In this document: positions 6,535-50,228 of the stretch, one piece after another
Layout of the letters: every line of letters begins with the position of its first letter
Numbering within the stretch: the first letter of the stretch is position 1
Virus record (IMG/VR): IMGVR_UViG_3300037067_026010
Coordinates: 32,001-96,000 of that record
Direction: 5' to 3' (one strand)
Origin: a virus
Taxonomy: Duplodnaviria > Caudoviricetes
Length of the DNA stretch: 64,000 bases
The notes under the pieces: generated by a model
The model's input: the letters and a program-made list of their open reading frames with translations, nothing else
Told to the model about the DNA's origin: nothing
Databases searched by the model: none
Translations under genes and position numbers: made by a program

Positions 6535-6550
6535 CGGTGCTTAATTACCG
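6535..6550 (-). repeat. 16-bp quasi-palindrome CGGTAATTAAGCACCG, copy 1 (reverse orientation)
   Basis: Plus strand reads cggtgcttaattaccg; about 20 bp upstream of the 6514 start. Confidence 0.9.
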
Positions 6551-6559
6551 CGGCTTGCT

Positions 6560-7654
6560 TTATTTGCACACATATCCACCACTATTTCTTTGCGCATAGC
6601 CGTACAGCGCGTATCCGCTGCCGATACCGCCCCAGCATGCCTCCAGATTCAATTCAGCCTTCTTGCGGCGTACGAATTCCGTGTAGGTGCTCCACCGGCG
6701 TGCAGCAGCGGCTTCGTAGTTCTGCTCCTTGTCCTGATCGTCGATATTAACCCCAGCGGCGCTGTACTGCAGCCGGTTCGCCCGGAACTGCTCCGCTGCC
6801 ATCATGAAGAGTTGCCCGCAGATCCCCTCCAGCCAGTGGTAGCGGTAGGGCATAGTCTGCGAAGTGTGTTGTACGATGTCCGGAGGTATTTCATTCCAAT
6901 AGGCCAGGGCATTTACGGCGGCAGACGCGATTTCAGCGTCGTCGAATTTTATATTGTCCAACAAGAAATTTTCGTTTCCGTCGCTGTCGCGCAGGTGCAA
7001 GCGCACTTCTGCAATCGACGGCGGCCCGTGCGGCCCGCGCCGCGACCAGAGGCTTCGATCGATATACAGGTAAAAAATGTTCGAAAAAAGAATATATTCC
7101 GCGGCTTCTGCATCGTCGTCGTTGACCAGCGCCATCTCCGCGAAATAAACGCCAGGCTGATTCGTCGCCTCCGCCGGTATGGTTGCGGAAACGACGCCAT
7201 TTGGCGCGTCGATGATCGTCGCTGGAAACTCATGCCTGCTCATGTCCACCAACTCGTTATACCCGACTGCCAAATACTCATGAATGCGCAATTTCAGGTG
7301 GTACGGCGCCTGGCAGGCCTGCCCGGCATTTGGATCTTCCTCCGGCAAGGTCTCGCCGTCCGGCGTCAAAAGGATTTGTTCCGAATCCAATTCCGTGGCA
7401 CACTCCAGACAGTCCGTCAGATCCACCGGATTGCCGGTGCGGTCCTGCATCGTCCAGCGAATTACGGCTTGCTGGCCGCTGCGCACCGTAATGGCCCGCA
7501 TACGGCTCAAGATCGGACGTTTATTTACTGTGGACAACGGCGCCGTTAGAATGTTTTGGCCGCCGCAGAACTGCGGGGTCAAACGCACCGGTTTTGGACT
7601 TGGCGCGTCGCATGGCGACTGCGCGGTAAGTGTCGGGGTAGCATTTACGGCCAT
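6560..7654 (-). CDS. Putative head-tail adaptor/neck protein with N-terminal Ig/BppU-like domain
   Basis: EVRLHLRDSDGNENFLLDNIKFDDAEIASA...GVNIDD resembles head-tail adaptor proteins; AAGGAG RBS. Confidence 0.6.
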   Translation of the reverse strand: MAVNATPTLTAQSPCDAPSPKPVRLTPQFCGGQNILTAPLSTVNKRPILSRMRAITVRSGQQAVIRWTMQDRTGNPVDLTDCLECATELDSEQILLTPDGETLPEEDPNAGQACQAPYHLKLRIHEYLAVGYNELVDMSRHEFPATIIDAPNGVVSATIPAEATNQPGVYFAEMALVNDDDAEAAEYILFSNIFYLYIDRSLWSRRGPHGPPSIAEVRLHLRDSDGNENFLLDNIKFDDAEIASAAVNALAYWNEIPPDIVQHTSQTMPYRYHWLEGICGQLFMMAAEQFRANRLQYSAAGVNIDDQDKEQNYEAAAARRWSTYTEFVRRKKAELNLEACWGGIGSGYALYGYAQRNSGGYVCK

Positions 7655-7707
7655 GTTCGTGCTCCTTGCAATAACATTGTATCAGACTGCTGCCCCCCGC
7701 CATAGCT

Positions 7708-7733
7708 AAAAAAAGCCGGGCTTGTAGCCCGGC
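7708..7733 (-). terminator. Rho-independent terminator
   Basis: Minus strand GCCGGGCT-ACA-AGCCCGGC followed by T7. Confidence 0.85.
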
Positions 7734-7752
7734 ACACGCTTTAAATCAGCCG

Positions 7753-8247
7753 CTAACGCCGCACATCTTGTTGCAACCGCAAGATATCGCGAATGCGCAC
7801 GGTCTCCGTTGCGGCCAAGCGTACATACCACCTGGTCAACGGCTGAGCCGCGTCTGCGTCGCGGACGGCATTCAAGCCTAGGCAGACGTGTCCTGGCGAC
7901 CAGGGAAGCTCGGTGTATAGTATATAGTGCACCGCAGGCAGCGTTTGCAGCGCCAGCAGCCAGCCTGGTAAATCTTGCATAGGCAGTTCTTGCCCGTTCA
8001 AGGCGATGCCGGCAAGGCGACCGTCTACAAGGGAAAACTGCAGTACATCGCACGGCCGTAGGCACACGTACAGTAACCCGAGTTTACGCTGCACCAGGCA
8101 CGCGAGCACGAGCGCGACAACTGCACCGAGTAGACTCAGGTAAGACACGTAGCTGGGCCAGTGCGGAGCGCACGACGGCAGCACGGCGGCGGCGATTAAA
8201 AGCACCGCGAAGCTTATCAACGCCAGACATTGTCGCAAAATTTCCAT
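7753..8247 (-). CDS. Hypothetical membrane protein (2 TM)
   Basis: Two hydrophobic helices at the N-terminus; start moved to ATG 8247, which has a GGAG RBS. Confidence 0.6.
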   Translation of the reverse strand: MEILRQCLALISFAVLLIAAAVLPSCAPHWPSYVSYLSLLGAVVALVLACLVQRKLGLLYVCLRPCDVLQFSLVDGRLAGIALNGQELPMQDLPGWLLALQTLPAVHYILYTELPWSPGHVCLGLNAVRDADAAQPLTRWYVRLAATETVRIRDILRLQQDVRR

Positions 8248-8310
8248 GCTATTGCTCCAAATCAGTTGGGAGGCCGAATCCTGGCCTCGACTTATGCACA
8301 AAACGCCCCG

Positions 8311-8511
8311 TCAGTCTTTCTTGCCCGGCGGGCAGCTCGCCAATCCCGCCACGATGCCCACAACGATACTCCATGAGGGCGTGGCAAAGAAAGGCCAACG
8401 AGGTGTCGAGACAAAACAGCTGATAAGATAAAACATGCCGTAAGACCCGAGGCAGGCGGCCGCCGCAGCGACTGCCAAGCGTATCGCGTAGGTAAGAGAA
8501 TAACGACTCAT
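8311..8511 (-). CDS. Small membrane protein
   Basis: 66 aa, two hydrophobic segments, AAGGAG RBS. Confidence 0.6.
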   Translation of the reverse strand: MSRYSLTYAIRLAVAAAAACLGSYGMFYLISCFVSTPRWPFFATPSWSIVVGIVAGLASCPPGKKD

Positions 8512-8547
8512 AACAAAAACTCCTTAGTTAAAAAGTAAGATGATCGC

Positions 8548-8784
8548 CTATTCGTGAAATCTCCCCGATCGCCACTTGGAATAACGTAAACATAACGCCA
8601 AGCGGACGATCACGCACCGGCCACCCGGCCAGAAGAAGGCACGCAACGCCCGGAACCACCACGTACGGGGAACTACCATGTTGCCATTGACCACCGGGTA
8701 TCGCCGTATGAGGATTTCGATAAAAATTTCCGTACAGAGGAGATACGTGCACACTGCCGCCAAAATGTACAGAACGTATATCAT
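8548..8784 (-). CDS. Small membrane protein
   Basis: 78 aa, hydrophobic N-terminus, purine-rich RBS. Confidence 0.5.
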   Translation of the reverse strand: MIYVLYILAAVCTYLLCTEIFIEILIRRYPVVNGNMVVPRTWWFRALRAFFWPGGRCVIVRLALCLRYSKWRSGRFHE

Positions 8785-9031
8785 TTGCCGCTGCCTTTCT
8801 CCGCCCGGACGGTAAAGTTTTGAAGTAACATTTTCTTCAATCCTCGCTGAAGGGGTATAAAATGATTTGTCTCCTTAAAATAACGGATTGCCGTATATAA
8901 ACATCGCCGCGTCGCAGCGGGTTATGCATGGTACACCTCCTTTGTGGTGAATTGGCAACTGTGCCGTTAGATAAATGCGCATCATCTATTCAATATGCCC
9001 GATTTATGCGCATTTTTTACTGAGAAGACCT

Positions 9032-9066
9032 AAAAGAAAAGCGGACCTCTTGCGAGATCCGCTTTT
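9032..9066 (-). terminator. Rho-independent terminator, possibly bidirectional
   Basis: Minus strand GCGGATCTC-GCAA-GAGGTCCGC-TTTTCTTTT; an A-tract flanks the other side. Confidence 0.85.
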
Positions 9067-9120
9067 CCGAGCAACGGTCCTACTGGATAGTCTGGACGCA
9101 GGTATGCTAAGTAGCGCGCG

Positions 9121-9501
9121 CTAGGCAGAGGCAAATACCGAAGATCCTTCTTCGACGCCCCATTCCCAGCTCGGGTCGATGATCCCCAAGACGCCGTTGC
9201 GCAGCGCGGGCACCTTGGAGGGATCGGTTGCGAGCGGATCGTTGAGCACGGGAGGTGGTGTACTGACCACCGTCAACGACGGCGTGCGTTGTCCGGAATC
9301 GCCGGTTAGGGCGCGGGCCAACGCGTTAAACTTGCGCCGGCTGGTGCCTACCGCCAGTTTGGTCAGAAGGTTTCCGGGTTCCGTATAGGCTTCCGCCGCG
9401 CCAAGCCGCCGGCCGTGTACGCCCAGAAAACTGAACGTGCGATCGACTCCGGAGTTATTGACGACGGTCGTATAGAGGTCAGCTGCAGTAGGTGTGGACA
9501 T
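9121..9501 (-). CDS. Hypothetical protein, probably capsid-associated
   Basis: Start ATG 9501 with AGGAG RBS; located in the head cluster. Confidence 0.6.
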   Translation of the reverse strand: MSTPTAADLYTTVVNNSGVDRTFSFLGVHGRRLGAAEAYTEPGNLLTKLAVGTSRRKFNALARALTGDSGQRTPSLTVVSTPPPVLNDPLATDPSKVPALRNGVLGIIDPSWEWGVEEGSSVFASA

Positions 9502-9599
9502 GACTGTCTCCTGATGGACTGGTAATGGGCCGAGACCCAGCATTAGCGGCAATAATGACGGCAACATACTGGGCTAAACCGCTAAAAGGCATTTAATGG

Positions 9600-9959
9600 T
9601 TACGCGGCCGGTTGCGCGGCAGCGAACAAACTCAACACGGCATTCGCCAATTGCGGATCGCTTGCCGCCTCGGTGGCGGCTTGTTTGATCACGGCAGCGT
9701 CGGCAGGCGCCGTTTGGCCGCCGAGTTGCGCTTGCAACTGCGCAGCCGCGGCCTTCAGCAAATTTTTGCTGCTCGGCTGCGCCTGATGGTACGCCGTGCG
9801 CAATTGCTCTGCCATGCCCAACATTTGTCTGGCTTCCTCGGCGTCCGCCGGCTGGATGCCGTAATCCTGGGCAAGCTTCGCAAAGAAACACGGATTGTAA
9901 ACACGCTCCTGGATTGCGGCAAATGCCGTTTCGGGGGCGAGGGGTTGGGTAGCGGGCAT
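9600..9959 (-). CDS. Hypothetical head protein with KxA motifs
   Basis: 119 aa containing LKAAA and IKQAA. Confidence 0.65.
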   Translation of the reverse strand: MPATQPLAPETAFAAIQERVYNPCFFAKLAQDYGIQPADAEEARQMLGMAEQLRTAYHQAQPSSKNLLKAAAAQLQAQLGGQTAPADAAVIKQAATEAASDPQLANAVLSLFAAAQPAA

Positions 9960-10111
9960 GGCAAGGGTCTCCGGGTGAGAACGAAAATTTTACGAACTTT
10001 TGCGTAATTTACGGTCGGCGCACTTGTGGCAAGTTGGACAACATACGCGGTAGCTCGCTGGGAGACTTAGTACTGCATGGCGTACATTGTCCGAATTGTC
10101 AAAGAGCAGGT

Positions 10112-10149
10112 CTCGGACCTGGCGTCGTAAGTGCAACGCCAGGTCCGAG
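10112..10149. other. Perfect 14-bp stem-loop downstream of the capsid gene
   Basis: CTCGGACCTGGCGT-(10 nt)-ACGCCAGGTCCGAG. Confidence 0.7.
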
Positions 10150-10205
10150 GTAGGCATGTGTCCGAAATGTGCCATTCAAACGGTTAGGCACATTGATTGG
10201 CTTGC

Positions 10206-11135
10206 TCAACTGAAGTCTGCGCGGGCGATACCGCCGGAATGCCCGATGGCGCCACCGCAAGTCTCATAAGAAAAGAATTCGAGCATGAATGCTTCTCTTT
10301 TGACGTACATAGTGGTGTCTTCCAGCAGATACGATTTCCCGATAAATTTCGGGTCCGCGAACATGAAAATCGTGTCGTCGGGAACCAGATCGCGTTTGAT
10401 CGTGATAACCCAGGTGCAACCGAGGAAGTTGACCTCGGCCCAGCCGTTCTTGACGATATCTTGCGAGAAATCGCCGCCCATCTCGTCACGGCCGAACTTC
10501 ATCGGTTCCTTGATCGTGACATTGTTGATGAGGCAGGTGTGCACTTCGAGGTGCGACGGTCCGCGCGGCATGATTTTGAGCATGTCGCACAGCGATTCAC
10601 GCGTGATGCCGCCTTCGATGGTTTCCCATTGAACCTGGTTGCCGTTGTACGGCACCGGAACGTCGGGACCGATCATTACCGCGTTGCACGCGGTAATATA
10701 TTTAGAATCTTCTTCCGCCAGCATGTCCTTTATGGCATTGTCCGAAAGGACTTGGCGGATATCCATGACCCACGTACGCAATTCGTCGACGTCCTTCGTG
10801 AATCGCGGTGTAACGATTCGGTCGAACATGACGCGGTAGCGCGGGCCGCGGATGTAGATATTGATCGGCAGCGTGGCGAACGGGATCGAAATCGCTGCGG
10901 GGGAGTCCGGTTCTTTATCGACGACTTTAACCGGCTTGTCGGTATCGACTTGACGGTCAAGTTCGTCGTTGCTGAGCTGGAGCGGCGGCAAAATACGACG
11001 GTAAAAACCGTCTTCACGCATCTTGGTGCGCGTGAAGTCGTTGACCGCGTCGATGGCCTGTTTCTCCATGCCCGGCGTCGAGAGCTGCTCAAACAAAGTC
11101 TCGTTGAGCAGTTGCGTATCGGCTCGAGAAGCCAT
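10206..11135 (-). CDS. Major capsid protein (HK97 fold)
   Basis: About 309 aa from ATG 11135 (GGAGG RBS); RTKMREDGFYRRILPP...DIRQVLSDNAIKDMLAEEDSKY has the HK97-type spine-helix pattern; follows the protease, scaffold and decoration genes. Confidence 0.85.
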   Translation of the reverse strand: MASRADTQLLNETLFEQLSTPGMEKQAIDAVNDFTRTKMREDGFYRRILPPLQLSNDELDRQVDTDKPVKVVDKEPDSPAAISIPFATLPINIYIRGPRYRVMFDRIVTPRFTKDVDELRTWVMDIRQVLSDNAIKDMLAEEDSKYITACNAVMIGPDVPVPYNGNQVQWETIEGGITRESLCDMLKIMPRGPSHLEVHTCLINNVTIKEPMKFGRDEMGGDFSQDIVKNGWAEVNFLGCTWVITIKRDLVPDDTIFMFADPKFIGKSYLLEDTTMYVKREAFMLEFFSYETCGGAIGHSGGIARADFS

Positions 11136-11224
11136 GGGCTTAACCTCCATGTTGGTGTCAAAGCGCCCGTAATGAGCGCTGGGCTAACGGATTGAACAAA
11201 TAATGTGGCTTGAGCTACGGCCTA

Positions 11225-11791
11225 TCAGGCGTAAGCGCCGGGCAGCCAGACCGGCCAAAAGTCGAGTACGTAAACACCGTGACTGTTGCGGAACGCGCCG
11301 TCGGCGACGACACCGCACACGGGGTCGACGAACTGTTGTACGTCACCATTCACCCCCGTCCCTACGTTGGTGAGCACACCGCCGGTGGCCAACGTGGTGT
11401 TGGCTACGGTGGCCGTCAGCAAATCGCCGGTGACGTAGGATTGCGTGGCGTCGAATTCGGTCGACTGGATTTCATAGCCGCCCGTGGCGACCAGGCCCGA
11501 CATAACGCCGGTGGGGGCAATGGCCTGTTGCATGAACAGCCCGCTTGCCGTGGTACCGGGATTGGCCACGTCGAAGTCGTTGCTGGCTTGCAAGAGGAAA
11601 ATGGCCATGTCCGTTTGGCCGACACCGGTTTCGAATTCACCGGCGCTATTCAGGTGGACCACGCGGCCCGCCGGAAGGTCAAACGTCACGTTGGCGGACA
11701 ATTTCGCCGATTTATCGAGAGCCGCCGGTTGGAACCACCCCTTCGGGACGTCCAAACCGTGCTCGAACATAAGTCCAGGAGTTGCAGGCAT
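11225..11791 (-). CDS. Head decoration/cement protein
   Basis: 188 aa, Gly/Thr-rich (AGRVVHLNSAGEFETG...YVTGDLLTA...CGVV), directly upstream of the MCP. Confidence 0.65.
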   Translation of the reverse strand: MPATPGLMFEHGLDVPKGWFQPAALDKSAKLSANVTFDLPAGRVVHLNSAGEFETGVGQTDMAIFLLQASNDFDVANPGTTASGLFMQQAIAPTGVMSGLVATGGYEIQSTEFDATQSYVTGDLLTATVANTTLATGGVLTNVGTGVNGDVQQFVDPVCGVVADGAFRNSHGVYVLDFWPVWLPGAYA

Positions 11792-11851
11792 TGGATAAAA
11801 CCTCCATGTCTATGGTGTACGGGAATTCAAACTCCCGCTTTTCGCTATGAA

Positions 11852-15951: not shown

Positions 15952-18030
15952 CTAAAACAGTTTTAGGGTGCTTTCCGGTTTCGGCGCGGCAGGTGCAGAC
16001 AACGGATCGTCTGGATTGCGGTACTGGTTCATCGCCTCGCTGTGAATATCCAGTTTATCTTCCAGAATGGCACGCGCCGCATCCGGATCCGGCATGCCGG
16101 CCACCTGTCTGGATAGTTGTTCCGTACGCAATGGGTGCAGCTCCTGGCGTTGTTGTGCCTCTTCGCGGCGCCAACCGTGCGCCTCCGTCTGCTGCTGCAA
16201 CGCTGCTTGTTCGCGCTCCTCGCGGGCACGCCGTCTCTCTGCTTCTTCCGAGGCCCAACCGTGCTGTTCGGTACGTTGTCCGTGTTCCGTAACGTCGCGT
16301 CCTTCCTGTACGGCTTTGCGTTTTGCCTCTTCCTCCCGTCGCCGATCTTCCGGAGTAGTAACGACATTACCGGTGGTAGGGTCGTACGTTTTGCCGCCCG
16401 CCTCGAGCTGCCGTTGTGCCAGCTCCTGCGCGGCCTGCACGCGGTTTGCCTCGTTGTGGCCGAGCATTTCTTGTAATTTCTTCTCTTCGAGTTGCCGCAG
16501 CACGTTGTCGCGGGCAATCTGGTCCCGCCGCTGTTGCGTATGCAGCCCGTATTCCGCAGCATGCAGCTGATGCTCGCGCTCGCGCTGTGCCCGCTCGTGC
16601 CGCAGACGTTCGCGGTCCAATTTCAACCGGTCGCTTTCGGACATCTGCCGCGACCTGAACTGTGCTTGGCCTTGCGCCATCTCGCGCATTTTCAATTCGC
16701 TGCCGCTCGGTTCGCGGCCCGCCCGCAGTTTTTCGCTCATATTCAACAACTGGTCGACTTCATGCGTATCCAGATCTCCGCCCAGCTTTTTCTTGAGGAG
16801 TGGCCGGATGAGCAGCATCTGGTCGGCCGCTTGCGGCGCGGCATCTACGATTTCGTTATAAGCCGCCAATACCTCGTCCGGATCGTGCCCGGCAATGTCC
16901 GGGTCGTTTTGCATCAAGTACTGTAGCAGCGCTTCCGACCGTACATCGCGCAGTTCCTGCTCATACTTCGGATCTGTCAGTTCCTGATATGCCCGCTGCA
17001 CTTGCTCAGAAGGCGGTGCGCCTTGCAGGGTGCGGGCCAACTGTGTCGTCGCTTGATTTATCGTGCTTTCCCCGCTGCCAAAGGGCATAAAAGCCCACGC
17101 CTGTTTTTCAGTCGAAGGACCATCGAGTACAGACGCGCACCGGGGCCCGCCGGCAAAAGGGGCGAGCAGGACCTCGGCCTGCTGTGCATTGGTCTTTGCG
17201 GTGCTTAAATACCGCGCCTGGGCTTCTTTGTAGTGGGTAATATCCGTCAACAGCCGTTCGACAAGGTCGTATGCCGGCCCTCGCGCCGACAAATCCTGCC
17301 GTGAACAGATTCCGCGGCGATGCTGCGCCATCTTCGCCAGTCCGGGAGTGACATTCAGCAATTGTTCGAAAACTTGTCCGACTTTTTCGCCGTGCAGCAA
17401 CACGGCGTTGTCGCGTACTACGGGTATCGGCACGCAGTCGGGCCTACGGAAGTAATCCGTCAATTCGCAGAAGGTGTAACCCATCTTGTCAAAAGCCGCG
17501 GCGGCCTGCCTGCGCAGTTCTTCCGTGGCGGTCTGCAACCGTCGGGCACCGGCTGCGGCCTTGCACATGGCCGCGGCGGGATCGGTCGGCAGGCTCTCCG
17601 GCTTTGCACCCATGCTCCAATCCGGTTGACGTGCTTGTTTTTCGCGGGCGGCCTTGCGCGCCAGCACGCCAGCCGGAGAAAGCGCGTATTCTGTGGACAC
17701 GGTGCAGGCATGATGCTGGGCCGACGCGGTCTTGGCAGTCGTCGGATACATTAGTTCCAGCACTTCTCCCGTATCGGCGAGGTCAAAGTCCGCCGCCTTT
17801 TCTTGTACGGTCGTCCCCAGCTTGCGCTGTTGATTGGTACGCCCGGTATTGTAGGCATAAACGAGCTGAGCAATGTGCCCGGCCGGCACACCCTGGGCCA
17901 TCGCCGACTTGGCGATAGCGGCATTCGGGTGCGTACCCGCATTAACGGCTTCTGCGATCTTTTCGAGAGTCGCGAGTAACCGTGCTTCAGCTTCCTTGCT
18001 CAAGGCTTTGCTCATCGGTGCACCTTTCAT
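15952..18030 (-). CDS. Large helical head/internal protein with multiple KxA sites
   Basis: 692 aa containing SKEA, EKAA, AKTAS, EKQA and AKMA; Q/E/R-rich coiled C-terminus. Confidence 0.7.
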   Translation of the reverse strand: MKGAPMSKALSKEAEARLLATLEKIAEAVNAGTHPNAAIAKSAMAQGVPAGHIAQLVYAYNTGRTNQQRKLGTTVQEKAADFDLADTGEVLELMYPTTAKTASAQHHACTVSTEYALSPAGVLARKAAREKQARQPDWSMGAKPESLPTDPAAAMCKAAAGARRLQTATEELRRQAAAAFDKMGYTFCELTDYFRRPDCVPIPVVRDNAVLLHGEKVGQVFEQLLNVTPGLAKMAQHRRGICSRQDLSARGPAYDLVERLLTDITHYKEAQARYLSTAKTNAQQAEVLLAPFAGGPRCASVLDGPSTEKQAWAFMPFGSGESTINQATTQLARTLQGAPPSEQVQRAYQELTDPKYEQELRDVRSEALLQYLMQNDPDIAGHDPDEVLAAYNEIVDAAPQAADQMLLIRPLLKKKLGGDLDTHEVDQLLNMSEKLRAGREPSGSELKMREMAQGQAQFRSRQMSESDRLKLDRERLRHERAQREREHQLHAAEYGLHTQQRRDQIARDNVLRQLEEKKLQEMLGHNEANRVQAAQELAQRQLEAGGKTYDPTTGNVVTTPEDRRREEEAKRKAVQEGRDVTEHGQRTEQHGWASEEAERRRAREEREQAALQQQTEAHGWRREEAQQRQELHPLRTEQLSRQVAGMPDPDAARAILEDKLDIHSEAMNQYRNPDDPLSAPAAPKPESTLKLF
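17199..17214 (-). repeat. 16-bp motif, 1-mismatch copy (reverse orientation, intragenic)
   Basis: Plus strand cggtgcttaaataccg versus cggtgcttaattaccg. Confidence 0.7.
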
Positions 18031-22005: not shown

Positions 22006-25000
22006 CTACCAGCCCTTCGTAGCACCCGTCCGTCCGAACTCGGTACCGGCGGCTAACGCCGGTACATAACTGGTGCCGCTGGTGTCAGATACATCCCCAC
22101 GGGCCACACCCTTGAGCAGGCTTTTTTTCTGATCGCCAGCCAAGAACCTCGTCATCCAGTCCGGGTCTTGGGCGGCGTTGGCCACTCCACGGATCATTTC
22201 CGGGGCGAAGGGCGGCGGATCTCTGTGGGCAAATATGCGTGTAACGCCGTACCGCTCCATAGCCGGCAACATGGACGGCTGCACCTTGGTGCCTATCGTA
22301 TGCTGGAGCACCGGTCGTTCCAAATAGTAGCCGACGGCTTGTTTCGGCGGTGCGATGATGTGACCCGGCCGCGGCATCCATTCTCGCTCGAGTGTCTGGT
22401 ACGGCACGACGTCGTCCGGCGCCCAATGCCCGTATTCCTCGGCAAGCCGCACATGATTGATCAAACCGCGCGCCAGCAACTCGATGTTCCTTCGGTGCGC
22501 CGAGACACCGGAGTCCGCCAACATTTTACGAAAGGCATCCACAAAATACCGACGGCCTTCGCCGATGCCCTTGTGTTTGACTATTTCCGCCGGATTGGGC
22601 GTACCGCCGCTCAGGATATCGCCGGCTTCCGCGTAGTCCCCGACTTTGACCTGCAACTTGCGATCGGCCGGCACGTAATGGTCCTCGCCCTCGATCGTGA
22701 CGTACGAGCCACCGGCAGGTGCTTCGCGTATATGGTTGATGCGACCATCCTTTTGTGCATGGGTGGCGCCGCCGGGAAAGTGTTTGGGAACCTGAATCAG
22801 GGCGTCAATGCCTTTAAAACCGGCGATAGCTCCGGCTTCGGCTGCACCGGCTACTCCCCCGGTGTGCTTCGAGGAGTTGGAGACGATTAGGCCATTTGCC
22901 AGAACAAAGAGATGCGAAGCATGATCCACTTCGAGATCATAAGTCTGCTGTAAACCGACCGGTGCCATTTCTTCACGCAGTAACTTGTAATAAGCGTGTG
23001 GCCGGATTACTTGCCAATTAGCAAGTTTCTCGGCCAAAACACGCTGCTTAACCCCGTAAAGGGGAATGGCTGCGGCACAACGGCGGATGCCGTCTTCGTG
23101 GGTAATGTCAATTTGATAAAGCGTACGTTTTCGGCCACTGTTATTATGGTACGGCCCGGTAGCGTATACCCCGAAACGCCAAGCTAGCAATTCCCTTACT
23201 TTGCGTGCCATAGCTAGTGACGTAGACGCAAAACCAAGATAGGGCTTGGCTCTGTCCGCATAACAATCCGGGGTGAAAACCGAGCCATCTGTGACCATGA
23301 GCCCGCCCAACAGGGCTGCAATAGATCGATTGTTCCAGCTGTCGATGGCTGCCGGCAATTCTTTTTCGTGAGCATATTTACCAAGCATCTCGTGGTCATG
23401 CAACCAGCGTCGAATTGGGTTAAGATAACCTTCCTTTATGCGTCCCTGACTATCCCGCGGTGCCGACGCCTGCACGAGCTGGCTTACCCGATAATACCCC
23501 GTATGCCCGGCTAAGCGTGTTAATTTCAAATTCAAAGGGGACAATTCTGCTTTCAAATCTTCAATCAGACTTGGATCATAACAACTGAAATTGACGCCAT
23601 TCGCGGCGTCCGTGTAACAACCGTCTCCAAGTACTAATCCCACTAGGAGAGCCATTGGCTCATCAACGTAACGTGCATCGTCGTCAAAAGCAATGGGCAA
23701 TACGGCGCGCAGTCGCCGCGTACGCAGCCCGACAGGGTATTGCATCGGTACGCCGTTAAAAACGTCCGCCTTGCAATTGGACGTGTAACGGATACCGAGG
23801 ATTTTGTGCTCCACCGTAGAGACCAGTGTTACACCGCTGTGGTCTCGCCTGAAGGGGTACCGGAAAAATGTACGGTAGCATGACCGCAAGCCGTTGTCGA
23901 AACAGCGTAGTACCTGTACCGGGAAGGTACGCCCGGTTTCATCCGCACCCAAAATCCAATCACCTGGGCGGACACGCTCGATCGCTTTTGTTGTCCAATC
24001 CGCCATGCGCACCAGTGTGCCCTGCGCCAGACAGATTTGCGCCTGTGTGATCGGCGCCGACAGTGCATGCGCCGCCGCCACGCCAATGAAGTCGCCTGTA
24101 GGCGGTATGCCGCCTCGCTCGCGCCTTCCGGCGTCACGTGCATAGACACCGCCGTCGGATGGGCCGCCCACCGTCGTACTGCGCACCAGGATTTCGTCGA
24201 CGCCTTTATTTTTTAGATCTCGGAGTATTTTCGGAGTGAGTTCCGTATTGCGGTTGTAGCCGCCGACGGCATGCGCCAAAAGCGCCCCGGCATTGTCCGG
24301 GTCGTCCGTGGCTATGGGCATTCCGCGCGGCATGGCCTCGTCGTAGGGCCGGTCGTCGTCGAGAGCGGAGACGAGTAGTCGGTGATTTGCCGCCACGAGC
24401 TGTTTCCCGAGGAAACCGGCTTTTGCGGTGGAAGCCTTCAAGTCAAGGATCCCCTTTCGTGCCCCGTAAGCTCCTGCAAAGTACTCGACGGGCGATAAAC
24501 CCTGGCTGTAACTGCGCGTGACGGGGACGGGCAACACGTTGCCGCGATGGTCCGTATACAGCAAGTCCGCCCCCACCAGGCTCGAAAGAAACTGTTCCCC
24601 CTGCTTGCTGCGGGCTCCACTGGCCACTTGGCGCCACAACGGGTTGTCCGTCTCAGCCAGCTCTTTGAGCAGCCTGGGCAGCATCTTGTTCTTCGCCATG
24701 CCTGCCGCGTGGATAACTCTGTCGTTCCGTTCGCTTTCCGACAGTTTGGGGTCCGAGAGGATGCGCTGGATTTCCGAACGCAGCTCCAGCTGCATTTGCT
24801 TGGCTGCCAGGGTGCTCTGCAGATGCTTGAGGCCGAAAGAGTAGCCGCCGGTGCTGTAGGCCGCATCCCGGCCTACGTCCGACAGCTTTTTCGAGACTTC
24901 GCGATATTTGTCCGGATGCTTTTCCGCTACGACCTGCAGCAACTTCTTCTGCATCTTGCCGTCGAGTACGCGGTCGTAGTCGCGCATATCCTCCGGCAAG

Positions 25001-25041
25001 GCTTCGTTGACGAGCAGTTGTCCGACGGTGGTTTTGAGCAT
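22006..25041 (-). CDS. rpoC: Phage multi-subunit RNA polymerase, beta' C-terminal part, intein-containing
   Basis: Bridge helix EYFAGAYGARKGILDLKASTAKAGFLGKQL; trigger loop AAAHALSAPITQAQI-[intein]-SSKHTGG; HRRNIELLARGL; DWMTRF...LLKGVARG. Confidence 0.9.
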   Translation of the reverse strand: MLKTTVGQLLVNEALPEDMRDYDRVLDGKMQKKLLQVVAEKHPDKYREVSKKLSDVGRDAAYSTGGYSFGLKHLQSTLAAKQMQLELRSEIQRILSDPKLSESERNDRVIHAAGMAKNKMLPRLLKELAETDNPLWRQVASGARSKQGEQFLSSLVGADLLYTDHRGNVLPVPVTRSYSQGLSPVEYFAGAYGARKGILDLKASTAKAGFLGKQLVAANHRLLVSALDDDRPYDEAMPRGMPIATDDPDNAGALLAHAVGGYNRNTELTPKILRDLKNKGVDEILVRSTTVGGPSDGGVYARDAGRRERGGIPPTGDFIGVAAAHALSAPITQAQICLAQGTLVRMADWTTKAIERVRPGDWILGADETGRTFPVQVLRCFDNGLRSCYRTFFRYPFRRDHSGVTLVSTVEHKILGIRYTSNCKADVFNGVPMQYPVGLRTRRLRAVLPIAFDDDARYVDEPMALLVGLVLGDGCYTDAANGVNFSCYDPSLIEDLKAELSPLNLKLTRLAGHTGYYRVSQLVQASAPRDSQGRIKEGYLNPIRRWLHDHEMLGKYAHEKELPAAIDSWNNRSIAALLGGLMVTDGSVFTPDCYADRAKPYLGFASTSLAMARKVRELLAWRFGVYATGPYHNNSGRKRTLYQIDITHEDGIRRCAAAIPLYGVKQRVLAEKLANWQVIRPHAYYKLLREEMAPVGLQQTYDLEVDHASHLFVLANGLIVSNSSKHTGGVAGAAEAGAIAGFKGIDALIQVPKHFPGGATHAQKDGRINHIREAPAGGSYVTIEGEDHYVPADRKLQVKVGDYAEAGDILSGGTPNPAEIVKHKGIGEGRRYFVDAFRKMLADSGVSAHRRNIELLARGLINHVRLAEEYGHWAPDDVVPYQTLEREWMPRPGHIIAPPKQAVGYYLERPVLQHTIGTKVQPSMLPAMERYGVTRIFAHRDPPPFAPEMIRGVANAAQDPDWMTRFLAGDQKKSLLKGVARGDVSDTSGTSYVPALAAGTEFGRTGATKGW
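22876..24033 (-). mobile_element. Intein (386 aa) with LAGLIDADG homing endonuclease, in the beta' trigger loop
   Basis: Starts CLAQGTLVRMAD, has block B STVEH, LLVGLVLGDG and LLGGLMVTDG motifs, and ends HLFVLANGLIVSN followed by Ser. Confidence 0.9.
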
Positions 25042-25083
25042 GGTGCTATTTCCGGCTGTCGTACTGCAGCCGGTCGTACAAAA

Positions 25084-25099
25084 CGGTAATTAAGCACCG
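25084..25099 (+). repeat. 16-bp quasi-palindrome CGGTAATTAAGCACCG, copy 2
   Basis: Exact match; about 42 bp upstream of the beta'-C start. Confidence 0.9.
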
Positions 25100-25360
25100 C
25101 TATCCGATAAGCTGTGCCGTATCGAAGCGCACCTGGGCCAACGGCGTCTGCTCCGGCTGCGTGCAGATCACCGTTTGCGCGACGCCGAGCTGCCGAAGCA
25201 GTTTGTCGAAGTCCTTATCGCCGACCCGTGCGACGTAGTAACCCTGGGTATCCCACTCCATCGCCATAATCAGCGGATTTCGGTGTGTATCGTAGACGAC
25301 CACGCGCGTGCACGGAATGCGCTGCGGGGCCCCCAGGCCGTTATGTATTTCTGCGATCAT
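25100..25360 (-). CDS. Hypothetical protein between RNAP genes
   Basis: 86 aa with AAGGA RBS. Confidence 0.7.
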   Translation of the reverse strand: MIAEIHNGLGAPQRIPCTRVVVYDTHRNPLIMAMEWDTQGYYVARVGDKDFDKLLRQLGVAQTVICTQPEQTPLAQVRFDTAQLIG

Positions 25361-35900: not shown

Positions 35901-35916
35901 CGGTAATTAAGCACCG
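35901..35916 (+). repeat. 16-bp quasi-palindrome CGGTAATTAAGCACCG, copy 3
   Basis: Exact match; 15 bp upstream of the 35885 start. Confidence 0.9.
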
Positions 35917-36022
35917 AACCGTATGCATCTTATCGCATTTCCGACTGCAGAGCCATACGAAAACGGCTGCCGCGGACGAAGCCGGGCAGCCCGTATTTTA
36001 ACGCGGCGCACAGGTCGTAAGC

Positions 36023-36445
36023 CTATACCGGTGGTGCCGGTGGTGCCGGAGGTTGCGGTTGCGGCGCCAAGTTTGGCGAAGGTGGTGGTAAATTTGGCGG
36101 CGGCGGGTAGCTGGCCACGGTGAATCCAACCCATTGTTGGTAGAGCCGCACGAAAACCGCAAGGGCCGCCATAATCGGCGGCAGCAGCTTCTGCAACGTG
36201 CCATGTGCCGCCAACCATTCCGCGTCAATATGGCGCAATGCCTCCCACGACATCCAAGCTACGGCCAGCCAGAAGGATTTCGAACGGAGCAAACCGCTCA
36301 GATGTCTTCGCAGCCGGCGTAACCGGCGCAAGGCAATGCGGTCGGCATCCGCAGTAGTTGATGCACGATATGTCGTTTTTGCCCGACGTCGCTTCCGTTT
36401 AAGCGGATGCGTGGGCGGTACGTCGTGTAGGTGTGGGTCTTCCAT
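36023..36445 (-). CDS. Putative holin-like membrane protein
   Basis: LLRSKSFWLAV resembles the R-x-K-x-F-W start of several phage holins; two hydrophobic segments and a Pro-rich tail. Confidence 0.4.
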   Translation of the reverse strand: MEDPHLHDVPPTHPLKRKRRRAKTTYRASTTADADRIALRRLRRLRRHLSGLLRSKSFWLAVAWMSWEALRHIDAEWLAAHGTLQKLLPPIMAALAVFVRLYQQWVGFTVASYPPPPNLPPPSPNLAPQPQPPAPPAPPV

Positions 36446-45023: not shown

Positions 45024-48000
45024 CTAGGGCGTCCAGTCCTCGTGCGGCGCCAGCAATACCGGCGCGCGATGCGCACCTGAAGCAAACTGGCCTTGCGAGC
45101 GAATTTTCGCAACGCGGCCGCGATAGATATCCGGCTCTCGCCATAGCTCGCGCCGCAGCTCGTCCGAGATTCCCGTACCGACTCTGCCGACGGTTTTACC
45201 GCCAGGCGTCAGCGCGTACTCGAAACCGCCGGCGCCGATGCCGCGGTACTTGCCGCGTCCGGGATAAACGCCGGTAATGTGCACATCAGATTCTTCAAGC
45301 AGCTTGCCTTTCTGCGGCACGCCTGTTGCCGGATGCAATACGATGCCCTCTCGCGTCAACGGGTGCTTGCTGCTGCGAATGCGATCCCACAGCTGTTGTG
45401 CAGATTCGGGCGTTTCCGCAGCCTCCGAAAGATGGAAGTAGTCCGCAGGCAAATGCGGCAGTACTTGCTCTAGGAGTTTGCGGCGCTCGGCGCGCGGTAG
45501 ATCCTGCACGGGTTGTTTGCCCAACTGTGGAATGTCGTACAGCATATTGCGCAACTGGATATTCCCGGCGCGCTGCTTTTCCAAGGCATTAGCGACGGTA
45601 GCATTGAGAATACCGCCCAATTCGTGCGCCGGCAGCACTTCGGGTTTCTTGCCTTCAGGATTTCGAAGTCCGTAAAGCTCGCCTTTCAATACCGTGCCTC
45701 GTAAGGCTTTCGGGATCGGCGTGGACGGCCTGCCACCAAACATTCGCTCGGAATATACGATAGGCTGGCCATTGTTTTTTGCCGTACGATACGAGGTCAC
45801 TTCGATACCGTCCTTGAGCAATTGCACGAGGCTGCTGGCACCGTCTACTTTGGCTTCGGCGGTCGACCCCGGCTGCATTTTGGCGAGAACGTTCTCGATC
45901 TGCTGCGCGGGTATTTTTTTGAAGTGGACTTTTTCGTGCTGTGCTCCCACCGGCACCGTCGGCGTCGTATTGACGAGTAGCCAGTTCTTCGATTTCGGAT
46001 CGCGCGGTTTGAGCAGTACGAACCGCTCCGGAAAGCGCGCGCTTGCTTGAGTAAAATGCACGGCGTCCGGTGTGACCTTCGTAATCAGCACTTGCCCCTC
46101 TTCCGCCTTCGAGACCGTGCCTTCTCCATAACCTTTTTCTATCCGGCCCTCGAAATCTTTGTAGCTATAGTCGTGCAGCGGTTGATGTACCGCGAGCCGT
46201 TTCTCGCCCGGTTTGGGCATCTCCTTGCGCATGGCCCAACTGTGTAGGCCGGAGGGGTCGCCGATTCGCAGATCAAAGTGCCGTTTTGCCCGTGCCGCAT
46301 CGTGCAATTGCCGCAGCAACGTGTAAACGTTTCCGGCCCGTAAATCCGTCAGTGGCTCTCCGTAATTCGACCGATCCGGTAAACCTGGAATTGGCGCTGC
46401 AGTCTTTGCCAGCGCGGGGGAGGGCGTTTGCACGAGTTCCAACATGCGCCGTAACAATTGCTGTCTGTCCTCGCCCTGAATATTTTTCAATGCCGCTGCG
46501 TCCCGATTTTCCGGAGTGACTTTTGCCGGATCAATCTTGCCATCGGCTGGTGCGGCAATCTGAGTCTTTTGAAGCCATGCATTCCAGGCCTTGTCCGCAG
46601 CTTCAGGCGTATCCACCTGTTGGCCGGTGGCTTTCACGTACTGCCGTTTGGCCTCGGCAAGGCGCGGATCGAGCTCATTTGGCGTGCCTGCGTAGGCATA
46701 TCGGCTTTCAGCCGTAGGCGCCAGCCACAGCCCTCGAGCGTTGTTGGCAGCGAAAGGCAGTCCTTCCGGTTTGGCCCGCTCCACCGGTATAAGCGGCGTA
46801 GTCGCTTCCTCGTCCGATTGCCGCAAGTAGTTTGGTCCCAAGGCCGCATGCGTTAATTCGTGCTCCAAGAGCGCTTGAGGTGCGCCAGGCGCCAGACTGA
46901 CTGTGCCCGTGCGGTGGTCCATCATACCCTGTCTACCGACCAGTGGCGTGTCCTTGGTGCCGGCGATTTCCTTATCCAGCGCCGACGGACGCCACCGACT
47001 AAAGCGTGGGTTATGTCCTGGTACTGCCAATTGTGCCTGTGCTTTCTGCACGGCCGCGTCGAGGCCACCCGGAGCTTTCGCATAATAGGGTGCAATTTGC
47101 TGTCGCAGCGTTGTCGTAAAATCCTTCGGCGCCGGCGTCACCGTTGCTCCGGCCGGGGGTACAACGGCCGGCTTGGCACCGGCGCCTGTCGGCCCCTTCA
47201 CCGGGGCCGCGGTACTGCTGGGAGTACCATTGCCAGAGGCAGGCGCAGCGCTGGCCCCTTCCGTTGCCGGAGCTTTTGGCGTAGTTGCCTCGGCAGCGGT
47301 TTTGGCCGACGGTTCGGCATTGCCGGTAGGCCACCACGCTTCAATGGCCAAATGCTGGTATGTCTGCCCGTCATATTCGCGATTACGCCAGCGCTTTTCG
47401 AACTCCGCAACCGACAGATAGCCATATTGCTTGCGGTCCCCGGCCATGGCGGGATCGGCAAAGTAAACGCTCTCGTCATCCATGCCGATGACGACGCTGT
47501 AGTGGCCGCTCTGCAGCTGCTTATAGTCCGCAGGGTCTCCCCAGGCTTGCAGCGAGACGATGACCGGATGCCGCTTATCGAGAATAGCACGCAACCCGGC
47601 GAGATCCAGGTTCTCGTGAAAGAGCACCTCCAACCCGAGCTTCCGTGCCGTTTGCACAAGATCCTCCGGATCCGTGCCCTTCTGCTTGCCGCTTTCCGAA
47701 CGTTCCGCCAATTGCGCTTCGGTGACGCTCAGCCCGTTGCCTTCCGCCACTTCGCGTAATGCACCGGGACCGCAGGTGCAATCGGTCTGCTGCCGAAGAT
47801 GCGGTACAGGCGCTTGGACGTTTGCGTCTCGCATGCCGATCGGTTCTTCGGCATCCTCGGGGCCGCGCGCCGACGGGCCGTTGCCGTCAGCTGCTGCGGG
47901 TCCGCCGTGGCTACCGGGCATCAGATTCTGATCTAAGGGCACTTGATCGGCCTGTCGGGTAACGCGGGTGCTGGTCATTCGCGGATCGTCCGTGCACATC

Positions 48001-48398
48001 TTGCTATCCAGGGCCGCCGCCTTCGTAACCTTCCCATCCTTGGTCCAATCGCCGAACTCGGCGAGCGTCATTGCCGTTACGCTGCCGAGACCCTTCCAGC
48101 CCTTCGAGTAGTTCGCCAGATAGACCTGCCGTGCTTCGTCCTCCGACAGACATCGATAATGCATTTGTGCTCGTCGAACTTGCCGGTGGCCGGAGCGTTC
48201 TGGTTGACGACATGCACCAGCTCGCTTTCCAGATGCGGACCTATGAAAACATCTAAATGGTCTTTGTCGCGGCCGAGGATGCCCTTGAAATAACCATAAT
48301 CGTTGGCCATGGTTATAGACCAGGTTTTGCCGTTCCTGTCCGTGCCGGAGCGTTCGCTGCCCTTGGGATTTTCGATGGCTATGCCAAAACCGGCCCAA
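45024..48398 (-). CDS. Polyvalent protein, main part: end of iPPase-like domain, C39 peptidase, HExxH metallopeptidase, LigD phosphoesterase, ATP-dependent DNA ligase
   Basis: QQTDCTCGPGAL...GHYSVVIG...FADP (C39); EHELTH; HFDLRI...LHSWAMRK...RLAVHQPLHDYSYKDFEG (LigD PE); EAKVDG, LKGEL, LYDI, EGIVL and VGTGISDELR (ligase). The true N-terminus is in another frame upstream of about 48154. Confidence 0.85.
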   Translation of the reverse strand: MGRFWHSHRKSQGQRTLRHGQERQNLVYNHGQRLWLFQGHPRPRQRPFRCFHRSASGKRAGACRQPERSGHRQVRRAQMHYRCLSEDEARQVYLANYSKGWKGLGSVTAMTLAEFGDWTKDGKVTKAAALDSKMCTDDPRMTSTRVTRQADQVPLDQNLMPGSHGGPAAADGNGPSARGPEDAEEPIGMRDANVQAPVPHLRQQTDCTCGPGALREVAEGNGLSVTEAQLAERSESGKQKGTDPEDLVQTARKLGLEVLFHENLDLAGLRAILDKRHPVIVSLQAWGDPADYKQLQSGHYSVVIGMDDESVYFADPAMAGDRKQYGYLSVAEFEKRWRNREYDGQTYQHLAIEAWWPTGNAEPSAKTAAEATTPKAPATEGASAAPASGNGTPSSTAAPVKGPTGAGAKPAVVPPAGATVTPAPKDFTTTLRQQIAPYYAKAPGGLDAAVQKAQAQLAVPGHNPRFSRWRPSALDKEIAGTKDTPLVGRQGMMDHRTGTVSLAPGAPQALLEHELTHAALGPNYLRQSDEEATTPLIPVERAKPEGLPFAANNARGLWLAPTAESRYAYAGTPNELDPRLAEAKRQYVKATGQQVDTPEAADKAWNAWLQKTQIAAPADGKIDPAKVTPENRDAAALKNIQGEDRQQLLRRMLELVQTPSPALAKTAAPIPGLPDRSNYGEPLTDLRAGNVYTLLRQLHDAARAKRHFDLRIGDPSGLHSWAMRKEMPKPGEKRLAVHQPLHDYSYKDFEGRIEKGYGEGTVSKAEEGQVLITKVTPDAVHFTQASARFPERFVLLKPRDPKSKNWLLVNTTPTVPVGAQHEKVHFKKIPAQQIENVLAKMQPGSTAEAKVDGASSLVQLLKDGIEVTSYRTAKNNGQPIVYSERMFGGRPSTPIPKALRGTVLKGELYGLRNPEGKKPEVLPAHELGGILNATVANALEKQRAGNIQLRNMLYDIPQLGKQPVQDLPRAERRKLLEQVLPHLPADYFHLSEAAETPESAQQLWDRIRSSKHPLTREGIVLHPATGVPQKGKLLEESDVHITGVYPGRGKYRGIGAGGFEYALTPGGKTVGRVGTGISDELRRELWREPDIYRGRVAKIRSQGQFASGAHRAPVLLAPHEDWTP

Positions 48399-48520
48399 GA
48401 AACGTGCCCCTTCGCATAATTACCGGCTTCGATCTGCCCCGGCGTGGGCTCGGTATTTACGGCGGCGCGGGCTTGCCGGAGTTCTTTTTCGTCCAACGCT
48501 CTCTTTTCGCGCACCAGCAT
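48077..48520 (-). pseudogene. N-terminal part of the polyvalent protein (inorganic-pyrophosphatase-like domain), frameshifted at about 48154
   Basis: PTPGQIEAGNYAKGH...IENPKGSERSG...YGY...DKDHLDVFIG...FDEHK; the domain continues in the other frame (SEDEARQVYLANYSKGWKG). Confidence 0.75.
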
Positions 48521-48537
48521 CCCAAGATTGCGCGCGT

Positions 48538-49038
48538 TTAATCCACGGACAGCCAACGCCCCTGAAAGTAGATCGGCTCCCCAAGCTGCGCGATCAACTG
48601 CAGCTCGTTTTGCAGCCAATCCACATGCGCCTCCGTCTCGTCGAGAATTTTCTGCAATACGGCGTAAGTCCCAAAATCCTTGGCTGCCAAGGCTGTCTGC
48701 GTCCAACCCGTATACTGGTTCGCCACCTCCACTTCGCCGTCCAAGTCCTCGGAGAATTGCGTCTTTAAGTTGCCCTCGACCGCCTCGATCACTGACGGAG
48801 CCGTCTTTGGCGCGCCGTCCAGGAAGATCATCCGATCGGCCACCAGCTGCGCATGCCCCCTCTCCTCCGTAGCTTCCTTCTCGTACATCTGCGCCAGTTT
48901 TTTGACACCATTTCCCTGCCAATACACTGCCCGTGCCCAGTAATGATTGGACACCGTCATTTCGGTGTTCAGCGCCTGTTGTAGCACTGTTAATAGTTCG
49001 CCGTTCTGCTGTATCGTCGTTTGCTGCTTCTCGGCCAT
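48538..49038 (-). CDS. bfr: Bacterioferritin
   Basis: LQQALNTE...NHY...EERGHA...RMIFLDGAP...DLDGE...AKDFGT...HVDWLQNELQLIAQLG aligns by eye with Bfr. Confidence 0.88.
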   Translation of the reverse strand: MAEKQQTTIQQNGELLTVLQQALNTEMTVSNHYWARAVYWQGNGVKKLAQMYEKEATEERGHAQLVADRMIFLDGAPKTAPSVIEAVEGNLKTQFSEDLDGEVEVANQYTGWTQTALAAKDFGTYAVLQKILDETEAHVDWLQNELQLIAQLGEPIYFQGRWLSVD

Positions 49039-49159
49039 TCTGTATCCCTCCTGCAGCCTGCTTGTGCGAGTTCACGGTACAAAGAACTTCAGCGCCGCCG
49101 CCCTTCTCTGTCGGCCGCGGGGAAATTGCGGCGGCTTGGCCAAAGTCCTGATGCATGGA

Positions 49160-49774
49160 TTACTTCTGCTGTGTCGTTACGGGCGGCGGATTTTGCATAT
49201 GTGCGGGAACATTTGCCGGTGCGTGCTGAAAGAACTGAAAGCACCCGAAAATAAACGCCACGCCAGCCCATTGCAACAATGTCGGCACCGCTGCAATCAG
49301 CGTGCGCCGGAAAGTTTCCCGCTTATCCGCATTTGCCGCCTCCGTTGTGGTTTTCAATGTATCCACGTCCTGAATCAGATTACGGATGCGGGCAGGGTCG
49401 ATTTGCGCATGATGCGCGGCCATCGACTCCTCGACAAGCGACATGCGCATGACCAGTGACCGCCCGGTTTCACCGCCCTCCAATAGTCGACATACTTTGG
49501 TCAAACCGTCGTTCAGCATGTCCAATTTGCTGGTCAACACGCGATAGTCCGCCTCGCGGGAGGTAAGGGCGGTCTGTAACGCATTGATCTCCACGTGCAT
49601 GTTGCGGCGGCACTCCTGGCACGACTTGTCGAACTGCTGCTGCAGTCGTGACGTACTGGTGGCCAGTTGGGCGTCCACGTAGGCACGAAACTCCGAATCG
49701 CCGGCCATAGTGCTCTCCACTAGTTTTTTCGTAAGGGTAGTTGGCATGACTCCGCACTGATTACACTTATGCAA
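49160..49774 (-). CDS. Coiled-coil protein with C-terminal TM segment
   Basis: 204 aa; LIAAVPTLLQWAGVAFIFG. Confidence 0.65.
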   Translation of the reverse strand: MHKCNQCGVMPTTLTKKLVESTMAGDSEFRAYVDAQLATSTSRLQQQFDKSCQECRRNMHVEINALQTALTSREADYRVLTSKLDMLNDGLTKVCRLLEGGETGRSLVMRMSLVEESMAAHHAQIDPARIRNLIQDVDTLKTTTEAANADKRETFRRTLIAAVPTLLQWAGVAFIFGCFQFFQHAPANVPAHMQNPPPVTTQQK

Positions 49775-49988
49775 GCCCCCGGGAATCCCCTACTCCCGGA
49801 TCCGGTTCGAACACGATAAGGTGTTCGAACGACTGCGGCGCCATCTGGAGCACAGGCGCCACTCCTCCTTCCTGCCTCACGACTTTTATCACAGGCAGTT
49901 GCCGATAGCAAAATGCCCGCATCCTGCGGAAATTTCGCTCACTAACCGGCCGGTGCTGCGGCCAACTTGCATTCCCCCTCTGTAGCAT
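49767..49988 (-). CDS. Hypothetical protein
   Basis: 73 aa, packed between its neighbours. Confidence 0.4.
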   Translation of the reverse strand: MLQRGNASWPQHRPVSERNFRRMRAFCYRQLPVIKVVRQEGGVAPVLQMAPQSFEHLIVFEPDPGVGDSRGLA

Positions 49989-49991
49989 ATT

Positions 49992-50228
49992 TTACGCTGG
50001 CAAACCAGCGGAACTTTTATAAGGGTGGTCCCGACGCTGTAACGCGGTAATTAAGCACCGCGCAGCCTCGCAGGCCTCGGCGCAGTGTTGTTGCAACTGC
50101 AGCCCTTCGTAAATGTGGTAGCCGTCGCTACGAGCGTAAGCCGTCGTATTGCCGATGACTTGCGTCACGCCGTGGCTTAGCAAGCAGGTAAACGCCTCCA
50201 GGAGGTCATCCGCACATTCCGCTGCCAT
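49992..50228 (-). CDS. Hypothetical protein
   Basis: 78 aa with AGGAG RBS. Confidence 0.55.
   Translation of the reverse strand: MAAECADDLLEAFTCLLSHGVTQVIGNTTAYARSDGYHIYEGLQLQQHCAEACEAARCLITALQRRDHPYKSSAGLPA
50045..50060 (+). repeat. 16-bp quasi-palindrome CGGTAATTAAGCACCG, copy 4
   Basis: Exact match with arms extended to CGCGGT/ACCGCG; inside the 3' end of 49992..50228. Confidence 0.9.

Follow-up and report, generated by a model that had tools for sequence, protein, structure and literature searches.

A dispersed quasi-palindromic motif at gene junctions of a 210-kb phage and an orphan ParB-family protein as its candidate binder

The motif, its copies and their placement

The window analysed here, a 64-kb stretch of phage DNA, comprises bases 32001-96000 of the 210,569-bp IMG/VR record IMGVR_UViG_3300037067_026010 (rated complete) and carries a dispersed 16-bp quasi-palindrome, CGGTAATTAAGCACCG, which a pattern search finds in four exact copies and one one-mismatch copy (Table 1). 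The original prediction, made from the letters of the window, had given the coordinates and strands of these five copies correctly, with both orientations present, and had judged them very unlikely by chance. The statistics bear this out: in shuffles of the window that preserve dinucleotides (n=100), with matches allowed up to 2 mismatches, 0.02 matches are found on average, and five are reached in 0/100. A scan of the whole phage genome at 0-2 mismatches, as that prediction had proposed, finds 22 copies, i.e., 12 exact, 7 with one mismatch and 3 with two. Words derived from the motif rank first among the over-represented 10-, 12- and 14-mers of the genome and are also among those most enriched in its non-coding DNA.

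The copies form a full logo of 18 bp, c-G-CGGTAATTAAGCACCG-C, in which 7/9 base pairs are symmetric, a proportion with a chance of ~1 in 1000 by our own binomial estimate. Variants are mainly transitions and fall at positions 1, 6, 11 and 16. Read in the sense direction, eight of the 22 genomic copies point one way and 14 the other, while in a codon-usage gene model the minus strand carries 224/245 called genes.

Most copies sit at gene junctions. Among the 19 with at most one mismatch, 13 are wholly intergenic and 4 overlap gene ends, in a genome whose non-coding share is at most about 20%. In 10/22 copies a TAA within the motif ends an open frame of at least 60 codons, and at one further copy (genome 57084) a TAG directly abuts the motif. 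The distance from the motif to the next start codon is 0-80 nt at most copies, several of which lie too near the start for a promoter to fit in between. The copy at genome 177966 even contains the upstream stop, and its G16-to-A variant makes the downstream ATG.

In the window, the original prediction had placed start codons 15-60 bp from all four exact copies. This stands for 6535 (ATG 6514 of a 419-aa gene, 20 nt downstream), for 25084, which lies 42 nt ahead of the start (25041) of the intein-bearing RNA polymerase (RNAP) beta'-C gene (window 22006-25041), and for 35901, whose central TAA is the stop of an upstream 103-aa open reading frame (ORF, 35907-36218). It does not stand for 50045, where the next confident start (49774) is 270 nt away. 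One exact copy and the mismatch copy had also been placed within coding sequence; the copy at 17199 is truly intragenic. The 50045 copy lies in a stretch of poor coding potential, within a weak 78-aa ORF. At 17199 the sole mismatch, A6 to T, abolishes what would be an in-frame TAA; because the one differing base would otherwise create this stop, selection appears to retain the closest permitted version of the motif.

Further features accompany two of these copies. The segment that separates the RNAP beta'-C start from the motif (window 25045-25083, minus strand) holds a 7-bp stem without mismatch, CCGGCTG ... CAGCCGG, together with a direct repeat of GTACGAC. The gap around the 50045 copy, which separates two large genes, contains several small hairpins with U-tracts besides the motif and its -10-like box, and may encode small RNAs or micro-ORFs.

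Outside this phage the motif is rare. In database scans that left out the phage's own record, the exact 16-mer occurs at 54 places in prokaryote genomes (596 Gb), one copy each, in 61 stretches among 241 million metagenome records, 60 of them single-copy, and at 3 places in IMG/VR; exact copies thus number ~1 per 17 kb in the phage vs ~1 per 11 Gb elsewhere. Searching the IMG/VR and metagenome hits against the phage yielded no similarity by blastn and one weak match only by tblastn, of an unrelated protein to L061 at 29% identity, while the prokaryote-genome hits were called unrelated on record titles alone. On these counts the word is private to this genome.

Table 1. Positions of the motif copies in the window, of the box beside one of them, of parB, and of a repeated palindrome in the viral contig G001
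Feature	Position	Strand	Context
Exact motif copy	window 6535..6550	-	intergenic; 9 nt past stop of 364-aa gene (6560-7654)
One-mismatch copy CGGTATTTAAGCACCG	window 17199..17214	-	within 692-aa gene 15952-18030
Exact motif copy	window 25084..25099 (genome 57084)	+	directly after TAG stop of 86-aa gene (25100-25360)
Exact motif copy	window 35901..35916	+	15 nt ahead of GTG 35885 of 182-aa gene
Exact motif copy	window 50045..50060 (genome 82045)	+	in 742-bp low-coding gap 49775-50516
TATAAA, -10-like box	window 50016..50021	-	exactly 23 nt downstream (sense strand) of 50045 copy
parB	genome 106552-107490 (protein 106552-107424)	-	ParB_N and HTH_ParB domains, both over cut-off; outside the window
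ATTTCGCGCGAAAT copies in G001	whole record 5642, 11325, 15689, 21889, 30095; L089 2215, 6579, 12262

Spacing to promoter-like boxes and the nature of the site

A subset of the copies is tied to promoter-like sequence at a fixed distance. At genome 82045, 106519, 120127 and 126966, a TATAAT-like hexamer follows the motif in the sense direction at a distance of exactly 23 nt, and a -10-like box lies 22 nt past it at 160134 and 33 nt past it, one helical turn further, at 132657; these box-spaced copies include both motif orientations. Under a strict -10 definition, three boxes fall at one offset vs 0.15 expected. Given a 17-nt spacer, the motif abuts the -35 position and its centre lies near -43.5. 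At 106519 the motif abuts TTGCCC, which is followed after 16 nt by TGtTATAAT, together a good sigma-70-type promoter. The -35 hexamers are weak at most box-spaced copies, the remaining copies have no -10-like box of this sort, and a consensus scan at the four exact window copies found no full sigma-70 promoter. The region at genome 105-135 kb, which holds 6 motif copies, also contains many small genes and most of the good sigma-70-like promoters, e.g., CTTGCA-N17-TATAAT at about 113396, and looks like an early region.

Could the motif itself be a promoter, or a promoter part, for the phage multisubunit RNAP or for one of the two phage sigma factors? The genome encodes both an RNAP (beta'-C) and sigma-70-like proteins, and start codons, including that of the RNAP gene, follow closely after many of the copies. 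However, the copies are split 8 vs 14 in orientation although transcription runs almost all on one strand, their spacing to the -10-like boxes is identical in both orientations, and the 22-23 nt from the motif end to the box is too long for a -35 element. One copy is intragenic, and the 177966 copy, overlapping both a stop and an ATG, leaves no room for a leader. A promoter role of this kind is improbable. The more specific form in the original prediction, a hairpin promoter element for the phage RNAP, is likewise improbable, given the same mixed orientation and missing leader room, and a stem of 4-5 bp around an 8-nt loop.

A nucleic-acid hairpin acting as an intrinsic terminator, as an RNA processing or translational operator, or as an extruded DNA hairpin would make use of the arms CGGT and ACCG, which together with the flanking G and C are able to pair. 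Flanking bases lengthen the stem at genome 160134, 100042 and 134227, a U-tract follows 160134, and a terminator scan weakly flags the 6535 copy. Yet the stem is just 4-5 bp with a loop of 6-8 nt, longer stems occur at 3/22 copies, and terminator-like features lie near 4/22. Moreover, the loop shows an invariance that no hairpin would require, the RNA loops differ between orientations, and an Rfam search of the window matched no family. We consider the hairpin readings quite improbable and reject a general hairpin or terminator function, its features being limited to a few of the 22 copies. Because the hairpin is short and not general, has loops that differ by orientation and matches no Rfam family, the motif most likely functions as a double-stranded DNA element to which a dimer binds.

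A quasi-palindrome with an asymmetric centre, present in both orientations, might also suggest a recombination or inversion core, a homing-endonuclease target or a packaging signal, and the genome does contain three LAGLIDADG inteins. No tyrosine or serine recombinase (integrase, resolvase) was found in the genome, however, and on this ground we discard the recombination core of the original prediction; ~20 inverted and direct copies would, in addition, scramble the genome. Joining the exteins at each of the three inteins gives a junction with mismatches to the motif at 8 or more of its 16 positions, and packaging signals are normally single. Readings of this group are highly improbable.

The ParB-family protein and its relatives

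The phage encodes one recognisable candidate for a dimeric binder, a ParB-family protein. Its ParB_N match (PF02195), the sole one in the genome, scores 34-37 bits, above cut-off, and its HTH_ParB match (PF17762), which covers the helix-turn-helix (HTH), scores 28.1 bits vs a cut-off of 22.6. The GxxR (GERR) arginine patch is kept: IDGERRLQA aligns with GERRLRA of Spo0J and is invariant across the orthologue alignment. Among solved structures the best sequence matches are Spo0J, ParB, Noc and KorB. An AlphaFold model with a predicted local distance difference test score (pLDDT) of 78 agrees with the folds of ParB, Noc and KorB in the N-terminal as well as the DNA-binding domain, fits the DNA-bound domains 6s6h, 6y93 and 1r71, and superposes on KorB 8qa9_B with a template-modelling (TM) score of 0.71 (target-normalised). 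Homologues and a GGAAGGAAG ribosome-binding site favour a start at MEKIKQ. One motif copy lies 99 nt upstream of this likely start, where it also gives the stop of the preceding 69-aa gene, and a second lies 17 nt past the parB stop; this bracketing of the gene is no more than suggestive.

This ParB appears to be an orphan. No AAA_31 or CbiA match, i.e., no ParA partner, was found in the genome, and the ParB N-terminus (MEKIKQAQSRL...) does not contain the ParA-binding motif LG(K/R)GL (as defined in PMC12704722); with a site that is off the parS consensus as well, the locus differs from a canonical ParABS partition system in its partner, its N-terminus and its site. The ParB-dependent thymine dioxygenase (5mYOX) route was considered separately and rejected, as the genome has no Tet_JBP match even at E <= 1 and the ParB of the 5mYOX system lacks a DNA-binding domain, whereas the phage ParB has an HTH (PMC13229309). 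Among 181 phage proteins of small to medium size, Pfam showed no further dimeric HTH regulator; the DNA-binding families in it are two sigma factors, one cold-shock domain and one ribbon-helix-helix protein. Neither sigma gene adjoins a motif copy, and for the genes flanking the motif sites Pfam and PHROGs are almost blank. That ParB would be the binder of the motif and would use cytidine triphosphate (CTP) is inferred, as is any direction of regulation.

With at least 294 members at E <= 1e-20, the ParB family is a large one. Orthologues (35-50% identity) occur in Mu-like phages, by genes for DDE transposase, MuB-like proteins and GemA, and in bacterial loci, where a sigma factor is a recurrent neighbour. 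The one parallel to the phage is a 40.6-kb viral contig, G001 (= L089, IMGVR_UViG_3300014205_000382), whose ParB is 39-40% identical to the phage ParB and which has a dispersed perfect 14-bp palindrome of its own, ATTTCGCGCGAAAT, present at intervals of 4-8 kb as 3 exact copies and 2 with one mismatch. The half-site of this palindrome resembles Noc and parS half-sites. The recognition helices of the two proteins differ, STCYVMQHAN in the phage ParB vs SSCWVYQHLS in that of G001, which fits different DNA targets.

Several side features of these contigs deserve mention. Long GC-clamped palindromes (GGGGTTTCTGCGCAGAAACCCC, GGGGTTTACGTAAACCCC) are clustered within 200 bp some 550-750 bp upstream of the G001 parB (L089:9260-9460) and may represent stacked hairpins or an array of centromere type. 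Besides ParB, the sole protein common to the phage and G001 is a 159-aa protein without family (genome 109728-110207; L155:1728-2207, minus strand), 46% identical over 86 aa to its G001 counterpart; it is encoded 2-4 kb from parB in both and may be a ParB partner. A ParB orthologue adjoins a sigma-70-family gene in the 2.7-kb metagenome contig L026 (740-800, 1690-1830, 2490-2570) and also in the bacterial locus L156:10001-11659, and in L026 inverted runs of GGCTAGTGG / CCACTAGCC flank the two genes, as do GTTCAAGG repeats. Contig L021, which is Mu-like and has a ParB orthologue, carries a 28-nt direct repeat, CTCCGTGACTCCGTGTCTCCGTGGTGAA, at 685-712, 1702-1729 and 5245-5272, all three at gene boundaries and in one orientation.

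Of the four interpretations originally offered, the operator and the parS-like loading site agree with the data and the hairpin promoter and recombination core have little support: dimer-like symmetry, mixed orientation, gene-junction placement, -10-box spacing and the bracketing of parB all fit the former two. The best explanation, to which we assign an even balance of probability, is that the motif is a double-stranded DNA site at which a single phage protein, most probably the orphan ParB, binds as a two-fold-symmetric dimer, and that its copies constitute a genome-wide operator/loading-site network.

The same symmetry and placement would equally suit the operators of another, unrecognisable phage regulator, for example an activator of class II type or a dimeric repressor, which would substitute for the -35 contact or block it; ParB would then be unrelated. 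Lux-box and lambda cI OR2-type sites act near position -42, and the site centre near -43.5 relative to the -10-like boxes, with -35 hexamers that are mostly weak, is compatible with such a regulator; most site-adjacent proteins have no Pfam or PHROG family, hence DNA binders are likely among them. However, no second candidate gene can be named, ParB is the sole dimeric protein recognisable as a site-specific binder, and it is the ParB gene that motif copies bracket. Sites such as parS, OB (the KorB operator) and NBS (the Noc-binding site) are typically near-invariant, more so than ordinary operators, and the near-invariance of the motif over 16-18 bp at ~20 sites suits them better. We regard an unrecognised regulator as possible, if doubtful.

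Several observations weigh against the ParB reading. In box III of the CTP pocket, which has the motif ENxQRxDL, the phage sequence has diverged so that the Asn alone is kept (ANFHAQ vs ENIQRE). The nearly invariant asymmetric positions 5-6 and 11-12 (AA vs GC) are not accounted for by a plain homodimer. The motif is identical to the parS consensus TGTTNCACGTGAAACA at 5/16 positions, in agreement with the original remark that the two are unlike. The chance that copies bracket one named gene is ~0.005 by our estimate, about 17-19 of ~245 junctions carrying a copy. Because about 85% of the phage proteins have no family, an unrecognised regulator could be the binder. About ten further contigs that encode ParB orthologues, for the most part Mu-like phages and bacterial loci, have no repeated palindrome within the 2-21 kb examined. 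Finally, no close relative of the phage turned up in the motif scans or in the ParB and RNAP beta'-C searches: single-protein searches of IMG/VR with the two proteins gave no matches, megablast with the RNAP gene gave no phage match, and tblastn with both proteins reached distant phages only, all at <60% identity and mostly at about 25-35%.

A proposed site network and known systems

Under the ParB reading, roughly 20 junction sites would be recognised by a dimer of one phage protein, most probably ParB, and these sites, absent from any host genome, would mark phage DNA. A CTP-type ParB clamp would load at them in the manner of KorB on plasmid RK2 or of Noc. Where a site abuts the -35 position, the bound protein would control initiation by a sigma-70-type polymerase; at tight gene junctions, the site would be a loading point or a roadblock. 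The bound protein could repress or activate its promoters, as a ParB-like clamp is also capable of activation in the case of BisD (PMC12409273). More tentatively, and with less confidence than we place in the binding itself, we propose that in this jumbo phage, which has its own RNAP and neither integrase nor ParA, an orphan ParB acting as a nucleotide-switch clamp at ~20 private sites serves both as a marker of self DNA and as a transcription switch, the asymmetric core carrying a second reading. Such a switch might, for example, shut host-polymerase early promoters or hand the genome to the phage polymerase.

Phages and other mobile elements commonly carry orphan proteins with the ParB fold, mostly without a known role (PMC12704722). 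The present phage offers a testable pair, one ParB whose DNA-binding domain is intact and ~20 sharply defined private sites. If the binding is true, clamp regulation of the KorB/BisD type would reach from plasmids and integrative elements to large, lytic-looking phages (this one looks lytic because no integrase was found), and the pair would be a ready-made orthogonal protein-site combination. If ParB is not the binder, the motif still marks the regulon of another global regulator of an uncultured jumbo phage.

Among known systems, KorB of the IncP-1 plasmid RK2 is a ParB-family CTP clamp with an HTH (PMC11790492; PMC13768133) that controls initiation from an operator directly upstream of -35, the geometry seen for the motif at 106519, and acts at a distance as a CTP-loaded sliding clamp (PMC11790492). 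Like the motif copies, its operators, about a dozen, are near-identical palindromic sites scattered over a mobile genome. Unlike the phage ParB, KorB serves partition with the ParA-type IncC and has the clamp-locking partners KorA and TrbA, neither type of which was found in the phage. OB is a 13-bp true palindrome, TTTAGCSGCTAAA, whereas the phage motif extends over 16-18 bp with a fixed asymmetric centre, and the KorB element is a plasmid rather than a 210-kb phage in which ParB is only the predicted binder.

Noc resembles the phage ParB in being an orphan ParB paralogue without ParA that has dozens of scattered conserved palindromes of 14-16 bp; the phage motif is unlike NBS or parS, however, and its placement at junctions and promoters points to transcription, not to a Noc-type division control. 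BisD on ICEclc is a ParB-like CTP clamp that loads at parS-like palindromes and activates many distant promoters (PMC12409273). Likewise a mobile-element clamp acting on multiple promoters, as proposed for the phage ParB, it differs in having two loading sites only, in requiring BisC at promoters and in carrying an additional activation domain; neither such a domain nor such a partner was identified in the phage. The linear plasmid-prophage N15 also has separate dispersed palindromic sites for its ParB-family protein SopB and no single centromere cluster, but it has four sites and the partition ATPase SopA, vs ~20 sites and no ParA found in the phage (PMC7205306).

P1 C1 operators and the conserved inverted repeats of phiC31 are phage-wide repressor site networks. 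The mycobacteriophage stoperators form another such network (PMC9283540, PMC6550527). Like the phage motif, these are 13-17-bp sites in ~17-30 copies in short intergenic gaps, at which one phage protein binds to control initiation or to block elongation. Stoperators and P1 operators are asymmetric and monomer-bound, and stoperators are oriented with transcription, whereas the phage motif is quasi-palindromic (7/9 pairs symmetric) and occurs in both orientations (8 vs 14); the phages that carry these networks are temperate, while no integrase, resolvase or recognisable immunity repressor was found in this phage. Site networks served by one protein are thus already known in phages and plasmids. 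What would be new here, in a 210-kb phage with its own RNAP and neither ParA nor integrase, is an orphan ParB serving ~20 private sites.

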